Positions 7,465-47,751 of a stretch of 64,000 nucleotides of DNA are shown here, piece after piece. The translations under genes were made by a program, and so were the position numbers. The notes under the pieces are model-generated. The model was not told where the DNA came from. It searched no databases and worked only from the letters and a program-made list of their open reading frames with translations. The stretch comes from Longimicrobiales bacterium (GTDB lineage: Bacteria; Gemmatimonadota; Gemmatimonadetes; Longimicrobiales; Gaopeijiaceae): the NCBI GenBank assembly GCA_965249725.1, contig CBDFMQ010000002.1:2272001-2336000 (forward strand), read 5' to 3'. Every line of letters begins with the position of its first letter. Within the stretch, counting starts at the first letter, position 1.

Positions 7465-8361
7465 TCAGACCTGTTCAGCAATCAGGGCGTCCGCTCTGCC
7501 CGAGGGATTCTGGGGATCCGGTTTGTAGACGTAGTCAACACCAGGTGTGAGGTATTCGACATAGAGGATCTCCTTATGGTCTCCATATTGGACGGCGACC
7601 ACGTATCCAGCTTCCCCCGGCAGGCTGAAGTAGACATAGCCATGTGTATTGGTTCTTGACCTGTCCAGCCCTGTCAGAACAGTCGTGGCGGCTAACGAGA
7701 CCTCGGCCCCCTCAACCGGACGACCCTCGAGATCGAGGACCCTCAGACTGCCGTTGTGCCGTTGAGGTTCAAGTTTGTTAGCCAGGCCCATGATCCCATC
7801 GGAGGCAGTGGGAAGAGCGTTCTTGGCCATAAGATCTAGGACTTCCTGTTCGAACCCGCCCGCTCTCTTTGGGATCATCCATTCCGGACCGTACTTGAGC
7901 CGAAGGTATTCTTCGGGCGGATTCGGTACCAAGAATTTCTCGCCAAGGAAATCGATCTCTTTCAGGTCCGTGTGAAGGCTCACCGGGATTTGAACGACCG
8001 GCCACTGGTAGATGCTGTCGTCAATGATTCGATAGCAGGACCAGTCCATCTTGGTGCCGGATTTCTCCAGATCAACGCTCAGACTGAGTTCATTCTCTTG
8101 GATTTTCGCATCGAACCCGTGCTCCTTGAACACGTCCGCTGCACTACGTACAAGTTCTTCGGTGAGCCCGTGCAGGCCGATCACCGAACCGATGTCCAGG
8201 TCATCGTCCCATTCGATGAAGGCGCGATCCCTCACAGCGCCCAAACACGTGCCGTGGCGCAAGAAGAAGACCAGTCCGAGTCGATCCAGGATCTGTTTCG
8301 CTTCTTTCAGCAGCGCTTCGGCATTGGTCTTGTCCATTGGCTCGAGAACGGTGGGCTTCAT
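7465..8361 (-). CDS. LicD-family protein with C-terminal extension
   Basis: GTCLGAVR...WDDDLDIG, P.NPEEYL..KYG..WMIP; start likely ATG 8361. Confidence 0.8.
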   Translation of the reverse strand: MKPTVLEPMDKTNAEALLKEAKQILDRLGLVFFLRHGTCLGAVRDRAFIEWDDDLDIGSVIGLHGLTEELVRSAADVFKEHGFDAKIQENELSLSVDLEKSGTKMDWSCYRIIDDSIYQWPVVQIPVSLHTDLKEIDFLGEKFLVPNPPEEYLRLKYGPEWMIPKRAGGFEQEVLDLMAKNALPTASDGIMGLANKLEPQRHNGSLRVLDLEGRPVEGAEVSLAATTVLTGLDRSRTNTHGYVYFSLPGEAGYVVAVQYGDHKEILYVEYLTPGVDYVYKPDPQNPSGRADALIAEQV

Positions 8362-8574
8362 GGTCGTGGATAAGCTCCTGTGTGGTTGTCTTGCGTGTAT
8401 ACACTGCAACTCATCCGGCGCTTCGGCGGCTGCCGACTCCTTCCTCCGACAGCGTTCTCCCCGTGGGAGGCACGCGAACCCCCCGATAGCGAACCGGCCC
8501 GCAAGGCCGGCGAACCTGAGTGGCATATCCAACGGATATGTCTACGAGGGTTCGATGTAGATCACAGGCGAGAG

Positions 8575-8599
8575 CTTGAGTCAGGCGTTACGTGACGTG
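8575..8599. repeat. Cassette-boundary site, right half only (distal end of array 1)
   Basis: GCTTGAGTCAGGCGTTACGTGACGT matches the right end of family-A sites. Confidence 0.6.
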
Positions 8600-8683
8600 A
8601 GTGCGGTCAAGGTACCGCGTCGGGGGCTCAGAGAACCGCGAGCAATCCGTCCAGAGACTCCGCCAGACTGCAGCAATCGCTTC

Positions 8684-9655
8684 TTAGCCGGCCACCTCCC
8701 CTGCGGCGCGGGAATCAACCTCTATTAGGCCAGGTCGCGGATCTCGACGGACTCGCAACTCGAAGACGTCAGGGCGCGAATAGTGCCCCGCTATGTCCAA
8801 CTGCCAGCGAGGTCCGACAAGTTGATCCGGTTCTATATCCGCGTAGAGAATGCCTTCTTCCCCCTCCAGCGGTCCCGCAACGACCTTGCCGTCTGGATCG
8901 ACGATCAGACTGAGGCCTGGATTCAGCCAGCCCTCCAACTCAGCCAAGTACTCGTCCTTGAACGCCAGGTGATCCGGCACATCGTCTTTGTGGAAGGCCT
9001 GGCACGCCGCGATCACGAAGCAGCGCCCTTCTTTCGCCACGTGCCGCATGGTCGAGATCCACGGCTCTCCGCGGTCCCATGTTGGAGCCACGTGAACCTG
9101 CTCTCCCCACGCCGTGAGTGCGTAGCGAGCCAGCGGCATGTAGTTCTCCCAGCACAGGAGTCCGCTGAGGCGTCCGAATGGGAGATCGAACACTTCGAGG
9201 TCACTGCCTGCGGCCTGCCCCCACACTAGCCGCTCACCAGCGGTCGGGATCAGTTTCCGGTGCTTTCCGAGCACGCGTCCGTCCTGGCCCAGGTAGAGCA
9301 GCGTGTTGTAGAGCGTTGAGTCGCTGGCCTCTGAGTTCCTCTCGTTCACCCCAATCGCAACGGTGACACCGCAATCACCGGCGGCGTCAGCCAAAAGGCT
9401 CACCTCGGGCCCAGGAATGGAAACGGAATTGCCGTGGAGCTGAGCGTAGAGCTCCCGGAGGGGGTGCGTCTTTCCCGGCGGGATGAACCAGACCCACAGT
9501 GGATAACCGGGCACGAACGCCTCTGGGAACGCGACGAGCGTAGCCCCCGCGTTTGCGGCGGCCTCGATCAGTTGGCACGCCTTCGCAATCGTGGCGTCCA
9601 AGTCTAAGAACACAGGGGCGGCTTGGACCGCCGAGATTCTGAAGGGTTCCGACAC
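8684..9655 (-). CDS. Nitrilase (carbon-nitrogen hydrolase), cassette gene
   Basis: Glu-Lys-Cys triad: FPEAF, HRKLIPT, LCWEN. Confidence 0.9.
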   Translation of the reverse strand: MSEPFRISAVQAAPVFLDLDATIAKACQLIEAAANAGATLVAFPEAFVPGYPLWVWFIPPGKTHPLRELYAQLHGNSVSIPGPEVSLLADAAGDCGVTVAIGVNERNSEASDSTLYNTLLYLGQDGRVLGKHRKLIPTAGERLVWGQAAGSDLEVFDLPFGRLSGLLCWENYMPLARYALTAWGEQVHVAPTWDRGEPWISTMRHVAKEGRCFVIAACQAFHKDDVPDHLAFKDEYLAELEGWLNPGLSLIVDPDGKVVAGPLEGEEGILYADIEPDQLVGPRWQLDIAGHYSRPDVFELRVRRDPRPGLIEVDSRAAGEVAG

Positions 9656-9718
9656 CGTCCTGGGTCTCCTTCTTCAAGGGTCCGTCCAATCTGTGATTGT
9701 ACTTCGAAAACTCATGTC

Positions 9719-9861
9719 CGATAACGGGCTCACGGACTCAAGACGCGGAGGTGGCGAAGCCACCGGAGTGTCCGCGAAGCGGCCGGCCCGTTGCTCACGT
9801 TAGAGCTTCGCGCTCCAGAGCGACAGCGGACCCAGGGCCATGCGTGAGTCTGGCGTTATCG
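9719..9861. repeat. attC-like site, family A
   Basis: CGATAAC-GGGCTCACGGACTCAAG...GAGTCTGGC-GTTATCG. Confidence 0.85.
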
Positions 9862-10004
9862 GGCGTGAGTGCGGTCGCACCATCACGATCGCGCCAGTGC
9901 GATGCACTCCACCTTGCGCCGACGCCGGTTGAGAGTAGCCCTTCCCCCAGGCCCTCTGATCCGTTATACGTACATTTGGATATCACTCATACGTAGGGGG
10001 ACCT

Positions 10005-10235
10005 GTGGCCAAGACCAAACTCACGTTGTCGGTCGATAAGGCTTTGGTGGTGAAGGCGAAGCAGTTCTCGCAGAGGAACGAGACAACGGTCTCGGAGTTG
10101 GTATCACAGTTTCTGGCGTCGTTGGACGATGACCGTGGGATAGCGGCACCCATTACCTCACGCCTTCGTGGCATATTGCCTTCTAGCGTCGAACGCGAGG
10201 GATACCGCGAACATCTCGAGGAGAAGCACGGGTGA
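10005..10235 (+). CDS. Antitoxin (DUF6364-like)
   Basis: KTKLTLSVD..LV.KAK..S......VSELV; overlaps the PIN gene. Confidence 0.75.
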   Translation: MAKTKLTLSVDKALVVKAKQFSQRNETTVSELVSQFLASLDDDRGIAAPITSRLRGILPSSVEREGYREHLEEKHG

Positions 10236-10648
10236 CGCGGGTGCTACTCGACGTCAACGTGGTGCTCGACGTCTTGGCTGACAGGAAGCCTTTCGCAGAG
10301 GAGGCTACCGCGCTATTCGGCGTGATCGAAGCCGGTGGACTGCACGGCTTCGTGGCGGCCCATACGATCACCACGCTTCACTATCTCCTGGCGAAGCACC
10401 TTGGGAAGGCGAAGACGCGCAGGGTGTTGATGGACCTACTTCAGCTACTCCGAGTGGTGGAGGTAGATGAGGATCGTCTGCGGCATGCGTTGGGACTGAA
10501 TTGGACCGACTTTGAGGATGCCGTGCAGGCAGCCTGCGCGGAGAAGGCGGAGACGGACTATCTCGTAACCCGGGACAAGAAGGGATTCACGCGGTCCGCG
10601 GTGAAGCCGGTAACGCCTGCCGAGTCGTTGGTCCTGATCCAAGAATAG
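10232..10648 (+). CDS. PIN-domain (VapC-like) toxin
   Basis: VLLDVNVVLD...DFEDAVQ...LVTRD. Confidence 0.85.
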   Translation: MTRVLLDVNVVLDVLADRKPFAEEATALFGVIEAGGLHGFVAAHTITTLHYLLAKHLGKAKTRRVLMDLLQLLRVVEVDEDRLRHALGLNWTDFEDAVQAACAEKAETDYLVTRDKKGFTRSAVKPVTPAESLVLIQE

Positions 10649-10691
10649 ACCGAGCTAGCTGATTAGCGTGAGCACCTCCAACATTCATGTC

Positions 10692-10835
10692 CGATAACGG
10701 GCTCACGGACTCACGACGCGGAGGTGGCGGAGCCACCGGAGTGTCCGCGAAGCGGCCGAGCCGCTGGTCATCGTAAGACCCGTCAGCCTACTCGCGAAAG
10801 CGAGCTGAGGCTCGAGCTTGAGTCCGGCGTTATGT
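10692..10835. repeat. attC-like site, family A
   Basis: CGATAAC...CTTGAGTCCGGC-GTTATGT. Confidence 0.85.
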
Positions 10836-11014
10836 GGCGTGAGGGCGGTCACGGCGCCACATGAGCTCGAGTGCAATGCACCCCACTTGCTCTGTCAGAG
10901 TTAGGCGGCCTCCGGTTGAGCGAATCAACAGCCGGCCTCGGCTCACAAAGCACCTGTGATTGAGTCCTCCTCGTCCCACACAAGAACCCCCAAGGGTCGT
11001 CGTGGCGCCAACAC

Positions 11015-11764
11015 CTAGCTTATTAGCGAAAGCCCCCAGGACCTCATCGTGTCCGTGGTGCTAAGTCCTGCCGCCGCACCTACCAGTACGATCAGGCCGA
11101 CAAGACCTCCCAGGAGCACCCAAGGTGGTCGCCGCCGTATGATCCAGTCGCTCCCAATGACCGTGACGACCAAGGCGAGCATCGACAGGGGGAACCACAC
11201 GTCCATTGCGTTTTCGACGCCGGACCGCCGCCAGATGCGATCGATCGCCGGAAAGACGATAGTGATGGACGCCAACAGCATGAAATGCTTATGGATTTGA
11301 GGTGTCCGCCGGTAGTACGCCGCACTCCCCACAAAGATGGTGAATACCAACAGGAAGGCGATGTTCACGCAGAGGTCGAGCACGGCCTCCGCCATGAACG
11401 CCAGTGCCCGTTCAGGGCCCACCAGACCAACGAGGCGATGCGGGATGAACAGAAGTGTCGTAACTGCGCTTGCTACAACGACGGGGATGGCCAAAAGGAG
11501 CCCCGCAGCGCCGAGTCTTCGGTGCAGGTCTGGGCGACGCGACGCGATCAACAGCGTCTGCGTGAAGAACACGACAAACCAGGCCGTGAGAACCCCGCCG
11601 TGTACGTGTATGTAGAGGGGTAGCTCGGGTGTCTCGAAGAAGACCTTGAGAAAGAAGCTTGGTGAGAAGCCGACCAGGACGATCACGAGTAAGACACCGG
11701 CAGTCACCACAAAGAATCGATCGTACAGTTGTGCGCCACCCCACGAGCGTGTTCCGTTGCTCAA
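11015..11764 (-). CDS. Multi-pass membrane protein, cassette gene
   Basis: ~7 hydrophobic segments; HG..LTAW, LHRRLG, HKHFML His motifs. Confidence 0.7.
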   Translation of the reverse strand: MSNGTRSWGGAQLYDRFFVVTAGVLLVIVLVGFSPSFFLKVFFETPELPLYIHVHGGVLTAWFVVFFTQTLLIASRRPDLHRRLGAAGLLLAIPVVVASAVTTLLFIPHRLVGLVGPERALAFMAEAVLDLCVNIAFLLVFTIFVGSAAYYRRTPQIHKHFMLLASITIVFPAIDRIWRRSGVENAMDVWFPLSMLALVVTVIGSDWIIRRRPPWVLLGGLVGLIVLVGAAAGLSTTDTMRSWGLSLIS

Positions 11765-11861
11765 CCTTTGGAGTCCTGTGGCTTCGAGACTTCACACCAC
11801 GGTGTCAGAGTTATTAAGACCGTCTAGCTAAGTTAGTGATTGCACTTCAAAAACTCATGTC

Positions 11862-11975
11862 ATATAACGGGCTCACGGACTCACGACGCGGAGCAGAGCC
11901 ACCGGAGTGTCCGCGAAGCGGCCGAGCCGTTGGTCATCGTAAGACCCGAGCTGCCGGAGCGCGACAGCGCGGAGG
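11862..11975. repeat. attC-like site, family A, right end missing
   Basis: ATATAAC-GGGCTCACGGACTCACG...; no closing GGCGTTA. Confidence 0.7.
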
Positions 11976-12021
11976 CCCTGCATCGAGACGGGATCAGGAC
12001 GGCATCGCTAGGCCATCGGTG

Positions 12022-12642
12022 TCAGTCTTCGCCGCCCGGGGTGGGACGGGCCTGGGATACAAACAACCCCGTCACGCCACCATGTACCAACACCGACAGC
12101 GCGACGTACATACCCGTCGGTCCGCTCTGGGTAATCGCGCCGACAGTGACTGAGGTGAGCAGTCCTGCGGCTACGCCGAGGGTGCTGCCAAGGAGCGCGC
12201 GGCCCGACGAAGGTGTGCCGTTGGCACGACGAGCGCCTGCGTGGGCGCCGATGGCGCCTCCGACCCACCCTCCGACTAGGTAGCCCAATGCTCCCCCAAC
12301 ATCGCAGTCATCGTAGCCGCAATCCGAGGTGAGTGACTGACCGATGAGGTAGCCCAGCGCCACGCCCGTTCCGGAGCCAATCACGCCTCCGAGCACCGCA
12401 GTGCTCCGCAAGCGACCTGAGACGGTGTCCTCCTGTGTCACCCGGGGCAGCCGACTCGGTAAGAGCGATTCACGACTACCCGCGCAGTTCGCCGAAGAGC
12501 CGGGCAGAGGTGTCACGAGCAGCGAGCCCGGTTCCGCCGAGCCCACGCGGGGGTTCGCTGGAGCGTTTCGGTCCAGTGAGCCAGTCGCGCATCCGGCTGC
12601 GAGGACGGCCGCCACAAGAGGTGGGAAACGGCAAGTCAGCAT
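12022..12642 (-). CDS. Gly-rich membrane lipoprotein, cassette gene
   Basis: LAAGC lipobox, glycine-zipper-like hydrophobic helices. Confidence 0.6.
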   Translation of the reverse strand: MLTCRFPPLVAAVLAAGCATGSLDRNAPANPRVGSAEPGSLLVTPLPGSSANCAGSRESLLPSRLPRVTQEDTVSGRLRSTAVLGGVIGSGTGVALGYLIGQSLTSDCGYDDCDVGGALGYLVGGWVGGAIGAHAGARRANGTPSSGRALLGSTLGVAAGLLTSVTVGAITQSGPTGMYVALSVLVHGGVTGLFVSQARPTPGGED

Positions 12643-12726
12643 AGGCCCTCCAAGAACCAACGCGGTCGCTACGACCGATGGCGCTCGTCTTCAATAACTC
12701 GTGATGCTACTGCAAAAACTCATGTC

Positions 12727-12868
12727 ATGTAACGGGCTCACTGACTCACGACGCGGAGTGCCGAAGGCACGGAGTGTCCGCGAAGCGGCCGGCCTGCTGC
12801 TCACGTTAGAGCTTGTAGCCTACCAGCGACAGCGGCTCCGAGGGCCGTGCTTGAGTCAGGCGTTATAG
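12727..12868. repeat. attC-like site, family A
   Basis: ATGTAAC...CTTGAGTCAGGC-GTTATAG. Confidence 0.85.
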
Positions 12869-12881
12869 GACGTGAGTGCGG

Positions 12882-13250
12882 TTACTCCTCGCTCGCTGGT
12901 GTAGCAGGCTCTCTCAGACGTGCGCCGAGAAACCCCCCGAGACACGCGGCTATAAGGCCAGAAGCGAGGAAGGGCAAGTCGTCCCCGAAGAAGGATGCGA
13001 ATTGTCCAGAGGAAATCAGGCCGATCGTGACGAGTAGCAAACCGGGGGCAACTACCCACAACCCCCATCTCCAGGCACCACCCGGCCAGAGGATGCCGGG
13101 AAGTAACCCCGCGGCACCGAAAATGGCCGTTGAAATGAGGATCGCTGTGGCGAAAGACGGCGACTCCAATGGCAGGTTGGCTGGCGCGGCTGCCGCGAGG
13201 AGACCGAGGAGGACGGCGATCACGTAGGCGTAGCGTGGCTGCCGGTTCAT
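12882..13250 (-). CDS. Small membrane protein, cassette gene
   Basis: Four hydrophobic segments; fills the interval between two sites. Confidence 0.65.
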   Translation of the reverse strand: MNRQPRYAYVIAVLLGLLAAAAPANLPLESPSFATAILISTAIFGAAGLLPGILWPGGAWRWGLWVVAPGLLLVTIGLISSGQFASFFGDDLPFLASGLIAACLGGFLGARLREPATPASEE

Positions 13251-13313
13251 TGGGACTTCCTCTGAGATGGTGATCGTCGTCCAACTAGTCGTTTAACTTC
13301 GAAAACTCATGTC

Positions 13314-13457
13314 CGATAACGGGCTCACTGACTCAAGACGCGGAGGTGGCGGAGCCACCGGAGTGTCCGCGAAGCGGCCGGCCCGCTGCTCACGTTAGAG
13401 CTTCCAGCTTCCCCGCGACAGCGGACCCGAGGGCCGTGCGTGAGTCTGGCGTTATGT
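13314..13457. repeat. attC-like site, family A
   Basis: CGATAAC...GAGTCTGGC-GTTATGT. Confidence 0.85.
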
Positions 13458-13622
13458 GGCGTGCGCTTGGTCTCGTGACGAAAACGCCACCAAAATGGTG
13501 CGTCCGCATGGACAAGACGGTGATGGGATCATTGAGACGAAATCAGTAGTAGGACGTCACAGGATACGATGAGCCGTCCAATCCACCTGGATGTCGGCAA
13601 GGTCCGGTAGAGTGAGGTCCCG

Positions 13623-14135
13623 ATGAAGAAGTGGTTGCGGCGCATCCGAGGTGCGGTCGGAATGGGATTGACGTGGGCGGCTGGGTGGGCACCCATAGGA
13701 GCTGTCGTCGGCCTGGTGCTGGGAGTCGTTATGCCCCCGGTTCTCGGCCTTGGTGCAGTCGTCGCACTCAACGCTAAGGCCTTCGCCGCACTGGGCTTCG
13801 TAGGTGGGACGCTCTTTTCGACGGTCCTCCGGCTAGCAGAAGGTCGTCGCAGGTTCGATGAGTTGGCGCTTCCACGATTCGCCGCCTTGGGCGCGCTGGG
13901 GGGCTTTCTGCTAGGAGGGCTCGCAGTCACGCTGGGGATGTGGGGTTCGGGTTTCCAGGCTTTGGGTGTCGCGATCACCGGCATAGCCACCCTACTGGGC
14001 GCGGGCTCTGCGGCCGGTTCGCTTGCGCTCGCGCGAAAGGCTGACCAACACGAGCTGCTCGAGGCCGGTGCCGACGTGGCGGACGTTGGATTGACGGAGG
14101 AGGAGAGGCACCAATTGCTTGAGGGCCCGGCTTAA
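13623..14135 (+). CDS. Membrane protein, inverted cassette gene
   Basis: GAGG RBS, four hydrophobic segments. Confidence 0.7.
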   Translation: MKKWLRRIRGAVGMGLTWAAGWAPIGAVVGLVLGVVMPPVLGLGAVVALNAKAFAALGFVGGTLFSTVLRLAEGRRRFDELALPRFAALGALGGFLLGGLAVTLGMWGSGFQALGVAITGIATLLGAGSAAGSLALARKADQHELLEAGADVADVGLTEEERHQLLEGPA

Positions 14136-14231
14136 CTCTCGCATGAACCGAGTTTCTCGATGGCTCGGGCCCGCAAGCGATGCGCGCGCGCCGGACAGCC
14201 ACTCTGAGTGATCTATGCGGGAGCGCATGTC

Positions 14232-14380
14232 ACATAACGGGCTCACGCGCTCCCGGCGCGGAGTGCGCGCCAGCGAACGGAGTGCCCCGAAGGGACGGGC
14301 CCGTTGGTCTCCACGATAGTGTCACAACAGGTAATGCGCGAAGGCGCACCGGAGGGTCCGGCGGGAGAGCGGCGTTATAC
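14232..14380. repeat. attC-like site, family B
   Basis: ACATAAC-GGGCTCACGCGCTCCCG...CGGGAGAGCGGC-GTTATAC. Confidence 0.85.
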
Positions 14381-14476
14381 GGCGTTCCCGCCCGCCCGCC
14401 TCGAGCAGTCACACGTTGGACGACGCGATCAAGATGCCGCACGCGGTTACGGCACCTGAGGGAAAGCAATCGCCTG

Positions 14477-15067
14477 CTAGACCTCTTCCTGGCCCGAATC
14501 TGCGGGAGTCGGCATCACCTTAAGCCGGGGATCCAAGATCTGTGCGGCGATCCAAAGGTACCAGACGAGAGTTGTCAGGCCATTGGCGATCTGTGCGTAA
14601 GAGCTCGACCTCGGTTGTGCGATACCGCTCTTCCAGTTCCGTAGTGTGGAGGGCTCCACTCCGAGCAGTCGAGCGAGATCACGTTGCGTCACGCACAGCG
14701 TCCGCACTGCATCGGACACGGTCTCCGGAGGAGCCAGACCGGATGTGGAGATCTCCTCGTCTTCGAAGAAGAGAGACCACAGCGGGTCGCCTGTGGTCAT
14801 GCGCTTGAAGCGAAGCCCGACGGCCCAGAAGTAAGCGACCTGACGTTGTCGTAGGCAGAGTTCGGCCAGCTTGCGGCGATAGAAACGACCCACGCTTCCG
14901 GACGAAGACCAGTTTCGGACTGTACCGCGCGAAAGCCCAAGGAACTCGGCGAGTCGAACTTGCGGTATGCAGAGGTCTTGGACGAAGCCCCCAGCCGTCA
15001 TCTCCTCGTAGACACGTTCCGCGTAGAACGTGAAATCAAGCAGCCCGAGGGACTCTAGTTCGGTCAT
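14477..15067 (-). CDS. Protein with two XRE-type HTH motifs, cassette gene
   Basis: QVRLAEFLGLSRGTVRNW and TQRDLARLLGVEPSTLRNWKSG. Confidence 0.7.
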   Translation of the reverse strand: MTELESLGLLDFTFYAERVYEEMTAGGFVQDLCIPQVRLAEFLGLSRGTVRNWSSSGSVGRFYRRKLAELCLRQRQVAYFWAVGLRFKRMTTGDPLWSLFFEDEEISTSGLAPPETVSDAVRTLCVTQRDLARLLGVEPSTLRNWKSGIAQPRSSSYAQIANGLTTLVWYLWIAAQILDPRLKVMPTPADSGQEEV

Positions 15068-15446
15068 GCCTTGGGGTCATCGCCTGTACGTGGCGGACAA
15101 ATCATCATCCAGCCAGGACAGGCAGCTAGGACGGGCGAAATGCGTGGGTTGCCAGGCACCGTGTCCGCGGAAAAGCATGGAACGAAATGGACACATGGCA
15201 ATCTTTTTTTTCAAGAAGGCAAGCAGAATAAGCAACAGCGCTAGCAGCTTGCCAAACGGATCCGGAAGCAGGAGCTCAAGAAGGTCGATGAGCAACGACG
15301 GATCCAGGGCGTGATCCAGGATAAGGGCAGGCATGGCTAATGGACATTATAGCACGCATCAGCTGAGAGACCAAGCCAGAGAACGTGCATCCTGTTACGC
15401 TTCAGGGCCACCAGCTAATCCGCCGACGAACTGACCGCTATCAGGA

Positions 15447-15474
15447 ATGCCGTATAACGGATTTTATACGGCGT
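15447..15474. repeat. 28-bp mini recombination site (11-6-11)
   Basis: ATGCCGTATAA-CGGATT-TTATACGGCGT. Confidence 0.8.
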
Positions 15475-15498
15475 CGTTTCGCCACGCCCTCCGGGACG

Positions 15499-15993
15499 CT
15501 AGCAGGGCGTAGCGAGTAGAGTATTGAATTCCGAACGGAATTCGGGCGAAAACGTGCCCCTCGTGGCGCACCAGCGCGGTTGGTATTGCGGGAAGGTCAT
15601 GAAGCCCCGCCACGCCTCCCGTTGGGCGGCGAACTCAGCCTCGTCGTACAGCCCCCGGCGGTACTGGTAGTGCACGTTCTCGAAGTACCGAAACATCGCC
15701 ATGGTGCGGTGGTTGAGCTGGACGGAATCCGTCGGCGTCAACGCTTCCGCCCTGTTCGCTCGCCTCACCAAGTCGGCCAGTTCAGGGTTTGTGGCGCCGT
15801 CACTCATCAGGTCGACAATCTGGACGGCTATCTCGTTCCTTGTCTGAGCCTCCATCATCTCTCGATTCTGTGCGAGTTCGAACGCCACGAGGAGGATCCC
15901 AGCCAACACACCGACCTCTGTAACGATAGTCAGCCATCGATTCAGTCGATCATGCTTCGGTCGTGACTGGTTCATCGCCGCCCTCGGATTCAA
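15499..15993 (-). CDS. Hypothetical protein with N-terminal TM helix, cassette gene
   Basis: GVLAGILLVAFELAQN...FENVHYQYRRG; fills the cassette. Confidence 0.65.
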   Translation of the reverse strand: MNPRAAMNQSRPKHDRLNRWLTIVTEVGVLAGILLVAFELAQNREMMEAQTRNEIAVQIVDLMSDGATNPELADLVRRANRAEALTPTDSVQLNHRTMAMFRYFENVHYQYRRGLYDEAEFAAQREAWRGFMTFPQYQPRWCATRGTFSPEFRSEFNTLLATPC

Positions 15994-16021
15994 CCGTTGG
16001 TTCTTCCTGCCTGCCGATGCC

Positions 16022-16165
16022 GTATAACGGGCTCACGCGCTCCCGACCGGAGCCGCATCGCGGCGTAGGTCCCGAAGGGACGGGCCCGTTGCCCTTCACG
16101 ATAGTGCCTGTCCGTCCATCCCGCGAAGCGGGTCCGAAGGGCCCGGCGGGAGAGCGGCGTTATAC
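16022..16165. repeat. attC-like site, family B
   Basis: GTATAAC...CGGGAGAGCGGC-GTTATAC. Confidence 0.85.
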
Positions 16166-16257
16166 GATGCGCCGGATCGGTGACTTTAGTCGTCACTCTC
16201 AGTGGCAACCCAACCGGCGCGGGGTTGTAGTATGTCGAAATTGACATAGTTTCCACC

Positions 16258-16596
16258 ATGAGTCCTGACGACAAGCCGATCGTATGGATTGCCGGTGAGG
16301 TGAAGACGCCGCCTTTCTCCGCAGAGGCGAGGATTGAGGTGGGCATGCTGTTGCGACGACTCCAGAGGGGAGATCGTCTCTCGATGCCGCACTCGCGGCC
16401 GATGACTTCAATTGGACGAGGGTGTCATGAACTCCGGGTTGTGGATGAGGGCGCAACGTGGCGCATCGTGTACTTCGTGGACTCGGATGCAGTGGTGATC
16501 CTCGACGTGTTTTCGAAGAAGACGCGGGCGACACCGAAGCGAGTGATGTCGATCTGTCAGGGACGTTTGAGAGACTACAAAGAGGCTAGGCGGTAA
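16258..16596 (+). CDS. RelE/ParE-family (Gp49-like) toxin
   Basis: EVKTPPFS...SMPHSRPM...CHELRV...WRIVY...VFSKKT. Confidence 0.85.
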   Translation: MSPDDKPIVWIAGEVKTPPFSAEARIEVGMLLRRLQRGDRLSMPHSRPMTSIGRGCHELRVVDEGATWRIVYFVDSDAVVILDVFSKKTRATPKRVMSICQGRLRDYKEARR

Positions 16597-16617
16597 GCGC
16601 CCGAGGGAGACGCGAGA

Positions 16618-16950
16618 ATGGACAAGGCCACAAAGAAGAGACTTGAGCGGGCGGGGTGGAGCACCGGTGACGCCAAAGACTTCCTCGAACTCTCAGAGGC
16701 GGAGGCGGCGTTCATCGACATGAAGTTGGCTTTGGCAGAAGACGTCCGAGCTCTGCGCCTAAACAGACACCTGAACCAGACACAGGTAGCGCGAATCCTC
16801 GGATCCAGTCAATCACGGGTCGCGAAGATGGAGGCGGCGGACTCGAGCGTGTCGATCGATCTCCTCATCCGGTCCCTCTTGAAGCTCGGAGCGAAGCGGA
16901 AGGATGTCGCGAAGGCGGTAGCACGGAAGAGGGTTGAGGCAGCAACCTGA
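16618..16950 (+). CDS. XRE-HTH antitoxin
   Basis: QTQVARILGSSQSRVAKME; follows the toxin. Confidence 0.85.
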   Translation: MDKATKKRLERAGWSTGDAKDFLELSEAEAAFIDMKLALAEDVRALRLNRHLNQTQVARILGSSQSRVAKMEAADSSVSIDLLIRSLLKLGAKRKDVAKAVARKRVEAAT

Positions 16951-16975
16951 GCCCTAACGCCAGGTTGAAGTAGGC

Positions 16976-17003
16976 GTGTCGTATAACGGATTTTATGCGA
17001 TGG
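16976..17003. repeat. 28-bp mini recombination site (11-6-11)
   Basis: GTGTCGTATAA-CGGATT-TTATGCGATGG. Confidence 0.8.
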
Positions 17004-17014
17004 AGGCCGGACAC

Positions 17015-17050
17015 TACGCCATTGACGTATGTGCGCCAATGGCGCATAGT
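17015..17050 (+). promoter_or_regulatory. sigma70-type promoter with palindromic operators for the higBA-like pair
   Basis: TTGACG-17 nt-CATAGT overlapped by TACGCCATTGACGTA and TGCGCCAATGGCGCA. Confidence 0.6.
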
Positions 17051-17054
17051 TGTG

Positions 17055-17373
17055 ATGGTCATCAAGGAAACCTCCGTGTTCACGAGGCAAGTCGATAAGC
17101 TGCTCGACAAGGAGTCCTTTCGACTCCTTCAGCTTCGGCTCGTGGAGAACCCTGAGGCAGGAGATCTGATCAGAGGCACCTGGAGGGCTCCGCAAGATCC
17201 GTTGGCAGGGCTCGGGCCGCAGTAAGCGCGGGGGAGTCCGAGTGATCTACTATTGGGCCCGCGAGGATGAAGTCGTTCTCCTCCTTCTCATGTATGGGAA
17301 GAACGAGCCGGGCGACCTCTCTCCCCAACAACGGACGATTCTGAAGCGCTTGGTGGAGGAAGAATTCTCATGA
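17055..17373 (+). pseudogene. HigB/RelE-like toxin with a 1-nt frameshift near 17181
   Basis: MVIKETSVF...NPEAGDLIRGT | GGLRKIRW...KRGGVRVIYY...YGKNE continues in another frame. Confidence 0.8.
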
Positions 17374-17657
17374 ATGACGATCTATTCAATGAACTCGTAG
17401 CGAGTGTTGAGGAGGGCGGAGCCATTCTTCGAGGGGAGAAGGAGGCCTCTCGGACTCACGTCGTCGAGGATCCCGACGTCGCCGCGATTCGAGAGGGGTA
17501 CGGTCTCTCTCAGGCGAAGTTCGCCGCTCTCCTCGGAATCAGCGTGAGGACGCTCCAGAACTGGGAGCAAGGACGTCGCCATCCCCATGGACCCGCGCGA
17601 GTGCTACTTCGAGTTGCCGCTCGCCATCCCCGGGCGGTTCTTGAGACTGTTAAGTAG
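17370..17657 (+). CDS. HigA-like HTH antitoxin
   Basis: GLSQAKFAALLGISVRTLQNWEQGRRHP.GPA. Confidence 0.88.
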   Translation: MNDDLFNELVASVEEGGAILRGEKEASRTHVVEDPDVAAIREGYGLSQAKFAALLGISVRTLQNWEQGRRHPHGPARVLLRVAARHPRAVLETVK

Positions 17658-17691
17658 CGACTCCCACTCGCCACTCGTTCGTACCTCCGTC

Positions 17692-17840
17692 GCATAACGG
17701 GCTCTCGCGCTCCCGGCGCGGGCTGAGCGCCAGCGAACGGAGTGCCCCGAAGGGACGGGCCCGTTGGTCTTCACGATAGTGCCGCACCCGCTAATGCGCG
17801 AAGGCGCGCCGAAGGGTCCGGCGGGAGAGCGGCGTTAGCA
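17692..17840. repeat. attC-like site, family B
   Basis: GCATAAC...GTTAGCA; interior identical to the 18704 site. Confidence 0.88.
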
Positions 17841-17856
17841 GACGTGCCGGTCCATC

Positions 17857-18657
17857 TCACCACCTGTCGGTGCGGAAGGATGATGCTGGAAGCCCAGCGT
17901 TGTTGAAGAGAGAACCGACAATCCAATTCGTCCAGGCGTATCGGACGGCGGTAGGATTCGGAACAGCTTCACTTGAGACACGCAGGTTTCCACCGCCAAC
18001 GATGACGGCTTCGGCGGGATGGAACACCTTGTCTTCACCCGCCACAGTGAAACTGGTCAACTCGCGGCCGAAACTGGATAGGCCGTCGGGTGCGTGGTCG
18101 AACTCCAGGACGGCTGCACCCTCTTCGACCGTGGAGGACGTGCTCGACGTGCCCTTCGGCGCCATTGACAGCTCTTGGGGCGGTACGCCGCATCGACTTC
18201 GGCCAACGCGTTGGACTTCAGCGCTATCGGGCATGCGTTCATCATCGTTGCTGCGCAGGACGGGTTGGCTGGGGTAGCCTCTGAAGGGCATTTGCATGTT
18301 GGACTGGCCAGACATGAGCCAAACTTCACCGACGACGACATCTTGGAATCGAACGGTCTCGGTCGCGTCACCCGTCCGGGCTTGGACGGAGAGCTCACGA
18401 GGCTCAGCGCTGGCCTCGGGAGAATCGAGGCGGATCATCCATCTCCCGTCGGCCGCGGAGGTAGTCGAGTAGGACTGCCCGGCGAAACGCACGGTGACCT
18501 GGGCGCCCGCAGCGGCCCATCCCCAAACAGGATCTGGAGCGCCGCGCTGCAGAACCATATGGTCGGAGAAGATCGATGGGAGACGAAGTTGAGCGGAAGC
18601 AGGGGCCGGAAACAGAAGCGCGGCAAGGACCGATAGATAGGCTACTCGTCGTGGCAT
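17857..18657 (-). pseudogene. Sialate O-acetylesterase with apparent internal deletion
   Basis: N-terminal LPSIFSDHMVLQR and GEVWLMSGQSNM plus C-terminal AVRYAW...GLPASSFRTD are present; the central region appears missing (266 aa). Confidence 0.7.
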
Positions 18658-18703
18658 AGGTGTGCTCCGTCCTAACTCGCCATTGTGAAGCTCAAAGCAT
18701 GTC

Positions 18704-18852
18704 TGCTAACGGGCTCTCGCGCTCCCGGCGCGGGCTGAGCGCCAGCGAACGGAGTGCCCCGAAGGGACGGGCCCGTTGGTCTTCACGATAGTGCCGCACC
18801 CGCTAATGCGCGAAGGCGCGCCGAAGGGTCCGGCGGGAGAGCGGCGTTACGC
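18704..18852. repeat. attC-like site, family B
   Basis: TGCTAAC...GTTACGC. Confidence 0.88.
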
Positions 18853-18865
18853 GGAGTCGCGCACC

Positions 18866-19090
18866 CTAGTGGTGGGCCAGGTTCCGCACGTGGAGAATCT
18901 CGCGGGCCTCAATCGGACGCAGATCAGCGCTCGAAAGAGTGACGACCGCCACCGTTCCACCTTCCCCGGAGACGAATTCGACCTCATAGGAGTCGTCGGC
19001 GTGCCGATGCACAATCGCCCCGACGTCGCCCACCTCGAGTCCGGCATCTGGAAGGTCCCGGCGCAGAACGACCGTATCGAGCTCTTTCAT
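18866..19090 (-). CDS. DUF4926-like small protein
   Basis: ELDTVVLRRDLP..GL..GDVGAIV.......YEVEF. Confidence 0.75.
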   Translation of the reverse strand: MKELDTVVLRRDLPDAGLEVGDVGAIVHRHADDSYEVEFVSGEGGTVAVVTLSSADLRPIEAREILHVRNLAHH

Positions 19091-19094
19091 ACCT

Positions 19095-19296
19095 CTATCT
19101 CCGCGTCGGGTAAGCGGTTACCAGTACAGGGACATCCTCACCCGTGACCATCCATACGGTGCCGAGGGACACGAATCAACACGTCCTGCTGTTTCCAGTC
19201 GCTGGCCAAGTCCTCTTCAGAAATCTCGGACGTGAGCGACGAGACTCGCTCTAGCGCCTGAAGCATGTGGGCCAGAAAGGCCCGGTCACGATTCAT
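19095..19296 (-). pseudogene. Fused remnants: HEPN/DUF86 N-terminus joined to DUF6883-like C-terminus
   Basis: MNRDRAFLAHMLQALER...QQDVLIR (19296 to ~19171), then out-of-frame TVWMVTGEDVPVLVTAYP. Confidence 0.65.
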
Positions 19297-19573
19297 CGAA
19301 GACGACGACGGCCGAGCCGAGAATGGACTCGCGCATGAAGGGGCTGATACCCGGCTCCGTCAGTAGGTCAACCGGGCGCCTGAAGAATCTGGCCAATTCG
19401 TCTTCGGCGCGGATCAACTCGAAATAGCCGATGCCGCTTCCGAAATCCGCGATCAAATCAACGTCGGAATCGGAATGCTCCTCGCCCTTGGCCGCGGACC
19501 CAAACATCCGAAGCCTGACAATGGCATGGCGACGACAACACTCGGCGAGCCGATCTTGATCAAACTGAACCAT
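19286..19573 (-). CDS. MNT minimal nucleotidyltransferase antitoxin
   Basis: FGSAAKGE...SDVDLI...RPVDL. Confidence 0.85.
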   Translation of the reverse strand: MVQFDQDRLAECCRRHAIVRLRMFGSAAKGEEHSDSDVDLIADFGSGIGYFELIRAEDELARFFRRPVDLLTEPGISPFMRESILGSAVVVFDES

Positions 19574-19629
19574 GTCGAAAGGTCTCTCCTAACAACCTCC
19601 AACGTCAATCGGCACCCCTCACAAGTGCT

Positions 19630-19657
19630 TTGTCCGATAACGGATTTTATGTGACGC
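19630..19657. repeat. 28-bp mini recombination site (11-6-11)
   Basis: TTGTCCGATAA-CGGATT-TTATGTGACGC. Confidence 0.8.
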
Positions 19658-19721
19658 GCCGTTGGTGGACCTCATCAATAGCTACGAAACCCCAAAGGAC
19701 CTAAGGCAAATCGCGGTCTGC

Positions 19722-20537
19722 TCAGTCCCAGGCGACCACCTCGACCTCGGTCGGCTCGTCGAACCCCTTGAGACTGATGGAGCCGAGCGAAGTGAACGAG
19801 AGGCCCTTGCCCATGCACAGATCCCGGACGACTCGGGCGGCCAGTATCTGACCTGGCTCGGCGTGATCGCAGATGCGGGATGTGAGGTTGATTGTCGATC
19901 CGAACAATGCGTCGCCGTCGAGAACGGGCTCTCCTGCCCCGATGCCGATCTTCGCCCGCACGGGGATGCCGTCCGCGCCGTCAGAGGCATCCGCAGTCAG
20001 CTTGGCCTGAATCGTCATGGCGCAAGAGACTGCGGCGAAGGCCGACTCGAAGCTCGTCAGGAATCCGTCGCCCGCGCGGTCAACCTCCCGTCCACCGTGC
20101 TCGACTAAAGCTGCTCTCACCGTGTTCCGATAACGTCGCACGACTTCGAGAGCTGCAGCATCACCCAGTGTTCGAGTGATGTCCGTCGAGCGGACCATGT
20201 CGACGAAGAGGATCGCTCGAAAGGCACTCTCTCGAATCGGCTCCGAGTCGACGCTTTCGGGATCGGCGACCCGACCGAGGAAATGCGCGACAGTGGTTGG
20301 GTCGACCTCGATGACTTGGTGGGGAATCAGCCCGTGAGCTTCTCGATGCATCTCCCGGACGGCCTCCGCTGAGGGAGCCTCGACGAGGCAGAAGGCGGCT
20401 CCCCGAGGCTCGTCGTACCAGTAGGTGAGGGCCTTACAGGAGTGTCTGCCCTGCACCTTGACGTCCTGGTGATGGGCCGCCGCCACTTCCTCTGAGGTCA
20501 CGTCCCGAATGTCGTGTCGATCCATGAATAGCGGCAT
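19722..20537 (-). CDS. DUF4242-like domain + class III nucleotide cyclase, first cassette
   Basis: MPLFMDRH...FCLVEAP...HREAHG; ILFVDMVRST, GDGF, GDALFGSTINLTSR. Confidence 0.8.
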   Translation of the reverse strand: MPLFMDRHDIRDVTSEEVAAAHHQDVKVQGRHSCKALTYWYDEPRGAAFCLVEAPSAEAVREMHREAHGLIPHQVIEVDPTTVAHFLGRVADPESVDSEPIRESAFRAILFVDMVRSTDITRTLGDAAALEVVRRYRNTVRAALVEHGGREVDRAGDGFLTSFESAFAAVSCAMTIQAKLTADASDGADGIPVRAKIGIGAGEPVLDGDALFGSTINLTSRICDHAEPGQILAARVVRDLCMGKGLSFTSLGSISLKGFDEPTEVEVVAWD

Positions 20538-20626
20538 GCGTACGTTTCCTTCCGTGGGGTCCGGCCCAATAGGACGAATCGAGGCTCGCTCTGCGCTTCA
20601 CCCGCCAATTGTACTACCCGACAGGC

Positions 20627-20702
20627 GTGTCATGTAACGGGCTCTTCACGAACCATATCAAGTTATCCGCCAAACGGCGACGTCATAACGTCTGACGTCG
20701 CC
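20627..20702. other. Candidate primary (attI-like) site
   Basis: GTGTCATGTAA-CGGGCT not followed by the hairpin body; nearby GTTATCC and a GGCGACGTCA/TGACGTCGCC inverted repeat; lies at the recombinase 3' end. Confidence 0.5.
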
Positions 20703-20761
20703 AAGACGACCACGAGGCGACGCACGTCGCCGCCCCGGTCCCATAGCGATACGCCTACCCA

Positions 20762-21395
20762 CTACTCCTCCCGCAACAGCCTATCTAGCGGGCTCTCTAC
20801 ATCCGTGGCCTCCCGGCGTGCGACGTGCGTATACAGCACGGTCGTCTTGATCTGACTGTGGCCGAGCAACTTCTGGATGTAGCGAAGGTCGGTTCCGGCC
20901 TCGAGGAGATGGGTGGCGAAGGAGTGCCGGAGCACATGAGGGGTGACGGGTCGGTCGATCCCGGCACGTTTGGCGGCGGCCGCCACTTGCCGTTGTACGG
21001 TCCGGGTCGTCAGGTGACGGTCGCGGCGGTGACCGGCCGGGAAGAGCCAGTCGTGAGGCCGTTCTACCGCAGCGTACTCGCGGAGCACCGCCAGCAGCAC
21101 AGCCGAGAGCATCACGTAGCGGTCCTTGCCTCCCTTCCCGTCGCGTACATGGATCATCATCCGATCGGAGTCGATGTCCGAGACCTTGAGGCGTACGACC
21201 TCACCCACACGGAGACCGCTCGCGTAGAGGACGAACGCGATGGCTATCAGTCCGCGCTTCCAGAAAACGCCTGGTGTGGGCCAGATAGAGTCGCTTCGTG
21301 CCGCGGGCGAACCCGCGAAGCGCCATCTCTTCCTTCATCCGAGAGAGCAACTCCTCGGAGTGAGCCGAGCGCCTAGGGTCTTTTGGATGGGGCAT
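20762..21395 (-). pseudogene. Tyrosine recombinase (SAM-like N-terminus + catalytic domain), internally deleted and frameshifted
   Basis: LLSRMKEEMALRGFARGTKRLYL..RRFLE joined out of frame to LYASGLR...GKGGKDR...HVLRHSFATH...LGHS....T..Y...SPLD. Confidence 0.85.
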
Positions 21396-21743
21396 TCCCA
21401 ACGCTGCACTGGCCAGTCGGGCAACTCCATAGCGCCTCGGGTCCGGGTGGGAAGTCGGGCACCACTCCCCGACCGGCGACTACATCATCAAGGTCGCCGG
21501 CGGAAAGGATCTGATGAGCACTCGCACGCACGGGACGGCGTCCCTGTGGTCGGATAGCGACGCCGATCTTCGTGAGGTCTTGGATGGTGTCGACGCGCTT
21601 CTCGCGGACCTACGCCCGTAGACGAGGACGAAGGCGGACCCCAGCCCGAGGTCGGTATGCGATAGATCGACTAGCGCTGGCCGATCGGGCCCGCCAGTAG
21701 CGATCAGATCGCCGAGCCCCCTCCCCCGCCGTCCAGTTTGCGC

Positions 21744-21898
21744 CAAGTAACCGGAGTTATTGCGGCCCCACGTGGGGTCCCGAGGCCCCATTCCCACCCC
21801 TAACTCACCGACGCCAAAAAGCCGGAAGCCCAGATCCCTCCTAGACTCCCGGCGAGTGAGCCGGGTGGGTCTCGAACCCACGACCTACGGATTAAAAG
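21744..21898 (-). repeat. att repeat: tRNA-Lys 3' part (21857-21898) plus conserved arm region
   Basis: 42-bp identity to the tRNA; diverged copy of 47566-47678. Confidence 0.85.
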
Positions 21899-29596: not shown

Positions 29597-29851
29597 TCTC
29601 GAGACGCCGAATAAGCGTCGCCACCAACACTCGACCGTGCCCTACAGTAGTCATGAAGTCCCCCGAGTCCCCTCCCCCACCGACCAGTTCCAGACAGGTA
29701 ACCGGAGGTTTTGGGGCCCCATGTGGGGTCCCGTAGCCCCATTTCCGCCCCTAACTCACCAACACCAAAAAGCCGGAAGCCCAGATCCTTCCTAGACTTC
29801 CGGCGAATGAGCCGGGTGGGTCTCGAACCCACGACCTACGGATTAAAAGTC
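29597..29851 (-). repeat. att repeat: tRNA-Lys 3' part (29808-29851) plus arm region
   Basis: Near-identical to 47566-47722; leftward extension shared with 38241-38436. Confidence 0.88.
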
Positions 29852-38240: not shown

Positions 38241-38436
38241 TCTCGAGACGCCGAATAGGCGTCGCCAACAACACTCGATTGTGCCCTCCAGTAGTCATGA
38301 AGTCCCCCGAGTCCCCTCCCCTACCGCCGAGTTCCCGCCAGGTAACCGGAGTTTTTGGGGCCCCACGTGGGGTCCCGTAGCCCCAAGTCCACCCCTCACT
38401 CACCGACACAAAAAAGCCGGAAGCCTAGATCCCTCC
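38241..38436. repeat. Fourth copy of the island arm region, lacking the tRNA core
   Basis: Homologous to 29597-29792. Confidence 0.75.
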
Positions 38437-38851
38437 TGATCTTGAGCGCGACAAGCACGCCCAGTGGTTCTACGGCAAGCTGACTTGCCCCTATATCGAC
38501 GGGCGTAGGGGTGAACGACTCGAACTGCTCGAGGATCCGGAGGCGCTCCTCCTCACGGTCGAACCCCTTCCGTGGGTCGCAGTCGACGTGGTAGAAGGCG
38601 AGGCACGCGACATCCTCTTTCTTGGCTTTCTTCCTCACCACCGCACGGAGAGGGTTTACGGAAAAGTAGAGATTGTGGGTGCCGCTGTAGTTCTTCAAGA
38701 ACGCTCGTATCTCTTCGGGCCGATCGCTCGGGAAGGTGCGAGTAATCGTTCGGCCGCCTCTGGGCGGGATCGCCGATAAGGTGATGAGCCCCCCCTGCGC
38801 ATGATCCAAGAGGAAGCGTACCGCGAGGTCGAGGTCGGATCGGAGGGTCAT
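38396..38851 (-). pseudogene. Truncated primase-like replication protein
   Basis: NLYFSVNP...KKEDV.....HVDCD; ORF runs into the arm repeat. Confidence 0.5.
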
Positions 38852-42282: not shown

Positions 42283-42431
42283 CGATAACGGGCTCACGAA
42301 CTCACGACGCGGAGTGAGCGCAGCGAACGCAGTGCCCCGGAGGGGCCGGGCCCGTTGATCTTCACGATAGTGTTACAGCAGCGAATTCGCGAAGGCGCAA
42401 CGCGGGGTCTGGCGGGAGAGCGGCGTCAGGC
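42283..42431. repeat. attC-like site (A/B hybrid), array 2
   Basis: CGATAAC-GGGCTCACGAACTCACG...CGGGAGAGCGGC-GTCAGGC. Confidence 0.8.
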
Positions 42432-43190: not shown

Positions 43191-43222
43191 TTCTTGGTCA
43201 ATTCAGATTTCGAGGCGATGAC

Positions 43223-43439
43223 GTATAAAGGGCTCACGGACTCACGACGCGCAGTGTCCGCGAAGCGGCCGGCCCGTTGCTCATCGTAAGATCAGGGCTG
43301 CCGGAGCGCGACAGCGTGGAGGGACGAGTGCCCACCTGATAGCGGACCGACCCCTAAGGTCGGCGATTGCGAGCCGTGTGACTGAGCCACGCGCGGGAGC
43401 ACTCGTTATCGAGGGCCGCGCTTGAGTCCGGCGTTATAG
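43223..43439. repeat. attC-like site, family A, with internal insertion
   Basis: GTATAAA-GGGCTCACGGACTCACG...CTTGAGTCCGGC-GTTATAG. Confidence 0.75.
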
Positions 43440-43587
43440 GACGTGAGTGGGGGGGCAACCGCATATCGTGGTGCGGCGTCCATCTGCGGATTGGAGATCA
43501 ATCGGACACCGGCGCGGCTGCGTTCCGCGCCGGTCATGGCCCGGATAGGGCTTGTTGTCGGGCCCGGACGTCTCCGCCGCCTTCGGG

Positions 43588-45646: not shown

Positions 45647-45691
45647 TGCACGGGGCGTGCGCCGTTCGGGCCTACATGTCCCGGCCCACCC

Positions 45692-47678: not shown

Positions 47679-47751
<73 letters not shown>

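Follow-up and report, generated by a model that had tools for sequence, protein, structure and literature searches.

A cassette array with three short junction sites

The 64-kb stretch of a Longimicrobiales chromosome analysed here (C3:2272001-2336000 of genome G000, hereafter the window) contains a cassette array headed by an IntI-like tyrosine recombinase gene. Full-length junctions of the array are long palindromic sites resembling attC. At three cassette boundaries, however, the long site is replaced by a 28-bp element, the mini site (M1 to M3), in which two inverted arms flank the same six bases, CGGATT. Our comparison suggests that mini sites are cassette-end sites without the attC hairpin; hairpin-less cassette sites as such are already known from the delta-attI cassettes considered below. 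The top strand of the array is the minus strand of the window, and its "bottom" strand, the one expected to fold, is the plus strand. The features of the locus are as follows.

8564..20638, minus strand: cassette array, with 13 junctions mapped (8 full long-type sites, 1 truncated site at 11865, 3 mini sites and the attI-type junction)
9722-9858, 10695-10832, 12730-12865, 13317-13454, 14235-14377, plus strand: palindromic long-type attC-like sites (~135-140 nt)
16025-16162, 17695-17837, 18707-18849, plus strand: further palindromic long-type sites
starting at 11865: truncated long-type site
15447..15474, plus strand: mini site M1, ATGCCGTATAA-CGGATT-TTATACGGCGT, end site of the cassette at 15458-16027
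16976..17003, plus strand: mini site M2, GTGTCGTATAA-CGGATT-TTATGCGATGG, site of the cassette at 16987-17697
19630..19657, plus strand: mini site M3, TTGTCCGATAA-CGGATT-TTATGTGACGC, site of the first cassette, at 19641-20637
20621..20660, plus strand: attI-type junction, GGCGTGTCATGTAA|CGGGCTCTTCACGAACC, adjoining the recombinase; its similarity to long-type sites ends after ~15 nt
20765..21250, minus strand: catalytic part of the recombinase (162 aa, IntI-like tyrosine recombinase); residues 132-291 of its intact orthologue from genome G511 are 84% identical
21204..21359, minus strand: N-terminal piece of the recombinase, read in a different frame; it corresponds to residues 15-47 of the G511 protein (82% identity)

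Mini sites thus make up 3 of the 13 mapped junctions, each at a cassette boundary. The core of the site is the 12-mer TAACGGATTTTA (TAA-CGGATT-TTA), and the inner hairpin of an attC-type site, with its L boxes and loop, is absent, which leaves arm, 6 nt, arm. Three exact copies of the 12-mer are present in the window, at 15455, 16984 and 19638, all on the plus strand, where 0.06 are expected by chance (100 shuffles); allowing one mismatch gave no additional copy within the window. The looser pattern ATAA-N6-TTAT matches M1 to M3 and nothing else in the window (0.01 expected). Outside the window, the 12-mer is found nowhere in the whole genome (3 contigs, 4.16 Mb), so that the motif, rather than being common away from cassette boundaries, has three genomic copies that are all at boundaries. 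The three sites point in the same direction and lie within 4.2 kb, at 1.0 to 5.2 kb from the attI junction at 20638.

The original prediction had described short sites in place of long ones at three cassette boundaries, and the mapping of 13 junctions bears this out, as does the arm pairing reported below; the three sequences stand as they were first written, with an invariant spacer and arms specific to each cassette. A degenerate fourth copy, which had been placed at 45088, turned out to be a truncated long-type site: a normal left arm and TAAC GGGCT are followed by unrelated sequence, with no TTA arm.

All three mini sites are covered by contigs from 4 sequencing runs belonging to 4 studies, which differ from the window at 0-1 positions each. 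M1 and M2 are spanned together by one contig in three of the runs (14281-17724 or -17603) and by adjoining contigs in X1, and M3 is spanned by contigs 19061 or 19557-21000. The sites are therefore no assembly artefact; they are real and fixed in the sampled population. A joint from 14271 to 18833 was also seen in contigs; it falls within repeated long-type sequence, one side being 30 nt, and was dismissed as evidence of excision.

The cassettes of the array measure 457-1083 nt, and many of them encode proteins of toxin-antitoxin type (PIN, Gp49/HTH, HTH, nucleotidyltransferase, DUF4926). Those ending in mini sites, at 564, 705 and 991 nt, are of normal size. The M1 cassette holds an open reading frame (ORF) at 15499-15993 on the minus strand, the M2 cassette a toxin-antitoxin pair on the plus strand, and the M3 cassette an SCO4226-like/cyclase ORF at 19722-20537 on the minus strand. 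No paralogue of these three cassettes was found elsewhere in the genome, and two genomes of the same genus match the array only in long-type sites and one PIN cassette. An extra A behind position 17193 is present in the contigs of three of the four runs, inside the toxin-like ORF 16995-17225 of the M2 cassette; the window copy of this ORF may thus carry a frameshift or a homopolymer error.

Arm pairing and the folding strand

Throughout the array, a site pairs through its right arm with the left arm of its right-hand neighbour, which is the signature of a cassette. Mini sites follow this rule: with G.T allowed, the arms pair at the cassette level at 13 of 14 positions for M1 and at 14 of 14 for both M2 and M3, the partner of M3 being the arm at 20624-20637. 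For 11 cassettes and 16 positions each (176 in total), we counted 132 Watson-Crick pairs, 23 G.T, 4 A.C and 17 others. When the arms were instead compared within one site in the array context, only 99 of 176 were Watson-Crick; M1 in that context forms a hairpin of 9 bp. The arms of the cassette at 18847-19640 pair poorly.

The excess of G.T (23) over A.C (4) indicates that the plus strand is the one that folds. The position of the recombinase agrees with this assignment, and so does a second family of sites in the genome, about 95 nt long, where the 3' arm of the plus strand carries the unpaired extra bases; in canonical attC sites, the extrahelical bases are assigned to that side. The folding strand of the array is also the C-rich strand of its replichore.

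The arms of the mini sites match the long-type consensus, CRTGYC-NN-ATAA / TTAT-NN-GRCRTG, and long-type sites read TAAC GGGCTC...GGC GTTA. The base preceding the right-hand TTA is a T in all mini sites, whereas it is a G (GTTA) in every full-length site. CGG directly after the crossover position is common to mini sites, long sites and the local attI.

Comparison with dif and Xer sites

The 28-bp layout of 11-6-11, with ATAA and TTAT around a 6-bp centre, is also that of dif and pdif sites, to which the mini sites had been likened. Such a reading would have the host XerC and XerD proteins move modules at these sites, and XerD as well as an XerC-like gene are present elsewhere in the genome; moreover, CGTATAA is common to the left arms of M1 and M2 and to the XerC-side arm of the genome's own dif. 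This last site, AGTTCGTATAA-TATATA-TTATGTTAAGT, is found on the reverse strand at C3:914794, and the cumulative GC-skew maximum of C3 lies at the same place (~920 kb), so that from its sequence and position it is likely to be the chromosomal dif. Mini sites, at 2.287-2.292 Mb, are 1.37 Mb away from it. TTAT(G)(T) is all that their right arms have in common with the XerD-type arm TTATGTTAAGT, and their centre is CGGATT instead of TATATA. All the long sites are flanked by the same ATAA/TTAT arms, which identifies these as arms of the array and not as Xer arms. Sites of the pdif type are arranged as pairs that do not all point the same way, unlike the three mini sites, which are co-oriented at cassette boundaries. 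The likeness to dif and pdif thus holds for the layout and fails for the identity, and we consider a role of these sites in Xer recombination very improbable.

Comparison with attC, attI and hairpin-less cassettes

Like attC (the 59-base elements), the mini site is present once per cassette at its 3' end, and its R'' and R' arms are complementary within the cassette. The bottom-strand crossover triplet AAC and the strand-specific folding of attC also have their counterparts, with TAA|C at all three mini sites. What sets mini sites apart from attC is the lack of L boxes, of extrahelical bases and of a terminal loop, and an R'' side without the G of GTT. Their core is 12 nt long, whereas attC sites range from 57 to 141 nt.

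In layout, two inverted boxes 6 bp apart, the mini site matches the attI1 site of class 1 integrons, the crossovers of the mini site being putative. For IntI1 acting on duplex attI1, PMC4792948 gives top- and bottom-strand crossovers mapped 6 bp apart, in the sequence CCCTAAA|ACAAAG|TTAGGC. The simple site of attI1 is there a duplex made of an L box, 6 bp and an R box, with the bottom crossover at G|TT and the top one 6 bp away. The attI site, however, is single and adjoins intI, whereas there are three mini sites, located inside the array and built of perfectly inverted R-type arms. In addition, attI carries accessory repeats.

Sites derived from attI1 that replace attC in some class 1 cassettes had also been proposed as a parallel, and this parallel proved apt. 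The geometry is the same over 6 bp (PMC4792948), and cassettes of class 1 and 2 integrons in which attC is replaced by 14-18 nt of attI (delta-attI cassettes) are excised and inserted by IntI1 (PMC12901181). As in the mini-site cassettes, a short hairpin-less site then occupies the place of attC at the 3' end, with the crossover at G|TT (same source). This raised the question of whether mini sites are themselves pieces of attI captured at the 3' end of cassettes. Their top strand, ATAAAATCCG|TTAT, resembles the delta-attI2 consensus AATAAAATG|TTRRRY (given in PMC12901181), and the two are of the same length class. But delta-attI sites are constant pieces of the resident attI, and the mini-site hexamer matches none of the attI junctions that we read: TAA|CGGGCTC in the window, TAA|CAGTTA in G511, beside the intact orthologue of the recombinase, and a candidate junction TAA|CTAATAA downstream of the IntI gene that this genome carries elsewhere. 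The same readings dispose of the suggestion that the invariant spacer is the native attI core. Furthermore, the left arm of each mini site is cassette-specific and complementary over 13-14 nt to the start of its own cassette, which is unexpected for a fragment of attI. Host and enzyme differ as well, mini sites being found in a chromosomal array of a Gemmatimonadota bacterium with another type of recombinase. Capture of an attI piece is, on these grounds, hardly credible as the source of the mini sites.

As a whole, the array is reminiscent of the sedentary chromosomal integrons with a co-oriented ("inverted") intI, and of the CALIN arrays, which are described in PMC4889954. Small, toxin-antitoxin-rich cassettes lie downstream of a tyrosine recombinase and in the same orientation, and some CALIN arrays have a degraded recombinase, as is the case here. 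The difference is that the recombinase of the present array belongs to a family without the insertion that defines IntI, and that intact members of this family exist in G511, G002 and G064.

Mini sites therefore lack at least one defining feature of each of attC, attI, delta-attI and dif. We call them attI-like in architecture and attC-derived in origin, and members of none of these classes.

The recombinase of the array and its relatives

The gene next to the attI-type junction is split into two frames, and about 84 residues between the two pieces are gone, with the 291-aa G511 protein as reference; of that protein, only the counterparts of residues 15-47 and 132-291 are kept. It is therefore a pseudogene. 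The 162-aa fragment scores 169 bits against XerA-type recombinases, 164 against IntI (in two stretches), 150 against XerD and 148 against XerC. With the IntI family model TIGR02249 (cut-off 265 bits), the fragment (164) and the intact protein P0002 (206) both fall below the cut-off, and P0001 (335) lies above it. In an alignment, the IntI-specific insertion of ~45 residues between the catalytic K and HxxR is present in P0001 and absent from the window protein, from P0002 and from 5 relatives. A C-terminal SP.D motif (SPLDR) is common to the array recombinase and P0001, and is not found in the two Xer sequences.

P0001, at C3:1.029 Mb, is the sole bona fide IntI of the genome. It is co-oriented with an array of its own, in which 4 of 4 sites are full-length and ~95 nt long. 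That it acts in trans on the array of the window is a matter of speculation. The 12-mer thus lies neither beside an intact recombinase gene, the adjacent one being a pseudogene without the IntI insertion, nor at the terminus, since dif is elsewhere. Because the local recombinase is broken and the region is identical across the four studies, the array is probably static at present.

In G002, G511 and G064, co-oriented arrays of TAAC...GTTA sites are headed by intact relatives in which the insertion is absent as well. Two of these genes are placed as follows.

L217 5573-6448: intact insertion-less recombinase
L032 11618-12538: intact insertion-less recombinase

The recombinase of G002, a genome of the same genus, is 63% identical to that of the window. 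In its array, a long-type site of 38 nt (L032 10829-10866) has kept both ends and lost the central ~100 nt, so that the long central part of such a site would seem to be dispensable or easily lost. G064, from another family, has sites of 145 nt and toxin-antitoxin cassettes in its array, and G009 a similar attI-like junction, on a 1.6-kb contig. A canonical IntI above the cut-off is present in G002, G009 and G011; none was found in G064, whose assembly is 95% complete. No site was seen by the insertion-less recombinase in G005 and several short contigs. Among metagenomes, 80 loci carry relatives of the recombinase that are 35-55% identical, mostly on short contigs. A generic hairpin/attC detector found 1-2 of ~10 known sites, and its run on 79 genome loci with distant relatives of the recombinase supports no conclusion.

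The family also occurs away from arrays, as seven identical copies in G011, in an IS91-like element. The unit (L033 = G011:C1:456000-474000, ~7980-10500) is 2.5 kb long, is 99.8-100% identical in all three places compared, and pairs a 297-aa insertion-less tyrosine recombinase with an IS91-type transposase. One copy directly follows sequence resembling the region downstream of the IntI of G000.

These relatives bear on the possibility that mini sites are original, the native duplex core sites of an insertion-less IntI-like recombinase that would perform two-strand exchange on arm-6 bp-arm sites and single-strand exchange on folded long sites. The absence of the IntI-specific insertion from the family, its place at the head of arrays in G002, G064 and G511 with a similar attI-like junction in G009, and the lack of a canonical IntI above the cut-off in G064 all speak for such a class, and a 6-bp spacing with identical centres is what canonical tyrosine recombination needs. 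Among the few boundaries walked, however, no mini-type site was encountered (2 cassettes in G002 and 2 in G064), nor at the one cassette-end site read in G511, and the arm mismatches are of the G.T kind only, pointing to selection for single-strand folding.

The motif is moreover confined to this genome, as far as searches in samples of genomes, many of them incomplete, can tell. ATAACGGATTTTAT was absent from all 100 relatives searched, and 400 genomes of the phylum yielded 1 chance match without matching arms, a reversed control being about as frequent. TAACGGRYTTTA gave 2 matches without complementary arms in 40 relatives, against 8 for the control, and neither of two same-genus genomes had a convincing mini-site match even at 2 mismatches. 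Matches to TAACGGATTCCTCCCG at 2 mismatches in 120 genomes of the family were mostly due to chance, the only exact one being in G511. In the main text of the open-access papers searched, we found no description of cassette sites of this arm-6-arm type, and none of cassette arrays headed by insertion-less integrases. We judge an original, native class of duplex sites to be improbable.

A broader proposal is that an integron lineage is run by an insertion-less IntI-like recombinase that has kept its duplex, two-strand activity. Mini sites would then be its footprints, made and possibly also used by cutting the top strand 6 bp away from the usual crossover, and would be natural intermediates between Xer-type duplex and attC-type folded recombination. 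We regard this proposal as doubtful, though somewhat less so than that of a native class.

Origin of the mini sites

The same hexamer, CGGATT, forms the unpaired 5' stretch in sites of the ~95-nt attC family of this genome. The element TAACGGATTGCGATT of this family (at most 1 mismatch) has 24 copies in the genome, versus 3 and 6 in two genomes of the same genus. In the alifold structure of 12 full-length copies, the L stem starts directly after TAACGGATT and ends directly before TTGTTA. From these limits, a mini site equals a CGGATT-type site minus the L stem-loop and TTG. Read on the top strand, the loss is TAA|[CAA-L''...L']|AATCCG-TTA, and the four A's in the product make these breakpoints the only possible solution.

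A site combining a long-type left arm with the same hexamer (GGCATGTCTGCTAA|CGGATT|CCTCCC...), ~45 nt long, is present in the array of G511, where the recombinase is intact. In four homologous toxin-antitoxin cassettes from other genomes, none of the boundaries was of the TAA-N6-TTA type, so that the mini state looks derived.

Two routes to the mini sites were considered and set aside. Replication slippage or microhomology was rejected because the breakpoints match no repeat. Cutting the folded bottom strand twice was rejected by reasoning, since this would yield TAA-TTG-TTA, which is not what the mini sites show.

Our preferred reading, to which we assign a probability of roughly one half, is that mini sites are collapsed attC-type sites, predicted to work, or to have once worked, as duplex simple sites in the manner of attI and of delta-attI cassettes. 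They would be cassette-end sites, equivalent to attC, reduced to the R-type arm pair and a 6-nt centre, TAA|CGGATT|TTA, most likely through precise deletion of the inner hairpin, with its L boxes and loop, from full-length CGGATT-type sites. On the top strand, a tyrosine recombinase would be expected to cut a duplex at just these junctions, TAA| and |AATCCG, 6 bp from the normal G|TT; monomers bound to the arms would cut the top strand at these breakpoints whether the site was duplex or folded. The product would have the architecture of an attI simple site, on which two monomers could bind the inverted arms of duplex DNA. After a bottom-strand cut at TAA|C, the cut strand would be exchanged with attI or with a long site in folded form, and the junction would be resolved by replication, as in attI x attC recombination and in delta-attI cassettes. 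The anatomy, position and uniqueness of the sites, the covariation of their arms, the strand asymmetry and the state of the recombinase are observed; both the collapse and any activity of its products are what we infer from the sites as they stand. It is an established principle of integrons that attI recombines as a duplex and attC as a folded single strand, both through one enzyme. The use of a duplex simple site and of a folded long site by one recombinase is likewise plausible here, though putative.

Several observations weigh against this reading. The neighbouring recombinase gene has decayed to a pseudogene, the contigs of the 4 studies show essentially no differences over 7 kb and give no sign of recent recombination, and the motif is at no cassette boundary in the other genomes searched. 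In their arms, the mini sites are similar to long-type sites and not to the 95-nt family, whose CTAA arms are GC-rich. No full-length parent combining long-type arms with CGGATT was found in this genome, and the G511 site that has both folds poorly. Applied to long-type sites, the same model of collapse would give a spacer of 9 nt, and it fails to account for the truncated site at 45094. Lastly, three identical collapses would have occurred here, versus none in the 12 full-length 95-nt copies elsewhere in the genome; they need either a special cause or a single, untraced origin.

Part of this evidence suits another account, in which three attC-type sites lost their inner hairpins through the ordinary instability of palindromes, the hexamer reflects a shared parent family, and the remnants bind and do nothing. 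The broken recombinase, the other truncated or lost sites of the array, the invariance of the array across the 4 studies and the absence of the motif from the relatives searched are all in keeping with inert scars, and the 38-nt site of G002 demonstrates that internal deletions occur. The G002 deletion, unlike the mini sites, retains R and L parts. The account also has to explain why the junctions are identical and the spacing exactly 6 nt in all three sites, with breakpoints that fit no direct-repeat microhomology. Random internal deletion of a palindrome would usually leave the closing pair C...G (TAAC...GTTA), which is kept in none of them. We take inert scars to be possible but on the unlikely side.

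The mini sites bear on the route that led from Xer-like duplex recombination to integron recombination. The array offers natural sites made of an arm pair and a 6-nt centre beside full folded sites with the same arms and, as intact recombinases of the array family exist in related genomes, it is a ready-made set of substrates for asking whether an insertion-less integrase needs the inner hairpin, which strand it cuts, and whether it exchanges the second strand. If the mini sites are only scars, they would represent a very precise mode of attC decay, one that programs searching for attC would miss, with annotated cassettes being split or fused as a result.

Other sites and repeats in the genome

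Decay is visible elsewhere in the array, in the truncated sites at 11865 and 8588 and in the poorly pairing arms of the cassette at 18847-19640, and the site at 45094 is likewise truncated; such decay is in keeping with a collapse of the mini sites as well as with inert scars. At the left end, a 3' remnant of a long-type site is present at 8564-8590 (GCG|TTACGTGACGTGAG at 8588). A carbon-nitrogen hydrolase gene (8684-9655) sits between this remnant and the site at 9722 and, being flanked in this way, seems to form the array's final cassette.

Some members of the 95-nt family, at C3:5641, 7790, 752851, 753430 and 755935 (minus strand), are split by an insert a few bases past TAACGGATTGCGATTCT. 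The inserts are of two kinds, one of which is followed by a transposase-like ORF. Judging from this arrangement, the inserts may be insertion sequences targeting attC; the IS1111-attC group is presumably a candidate.

A second, small cluster of sites without a recombinase occupies 42286-46620 of the window. Long-type sites are found there at 42286 and 46481, together with a long-type-like site bearing an inserted stretch (~43220-43440), the truncated site at 45094 and an inverted ~95-nt site (~45150-45265) without its CTAAC end.

One further repeat adjoins the array.

21682..21898, minus strand: repeat located immediately upstream of the recombinase pseudogene; it matches a portion of tRNA-Lys (47679-47751) together with the DNA that follows downstream

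The segment overlapping tRNA-Lys is present in four copies that are 82-89% identical, at 21682-21898, 29632-29849, 38276-38437 and 47550-47720, a pattern suggesting that islands have integrated at tRNA-Lys one after another. The two arrays of the window each lie just downstream of a copy of this segment.

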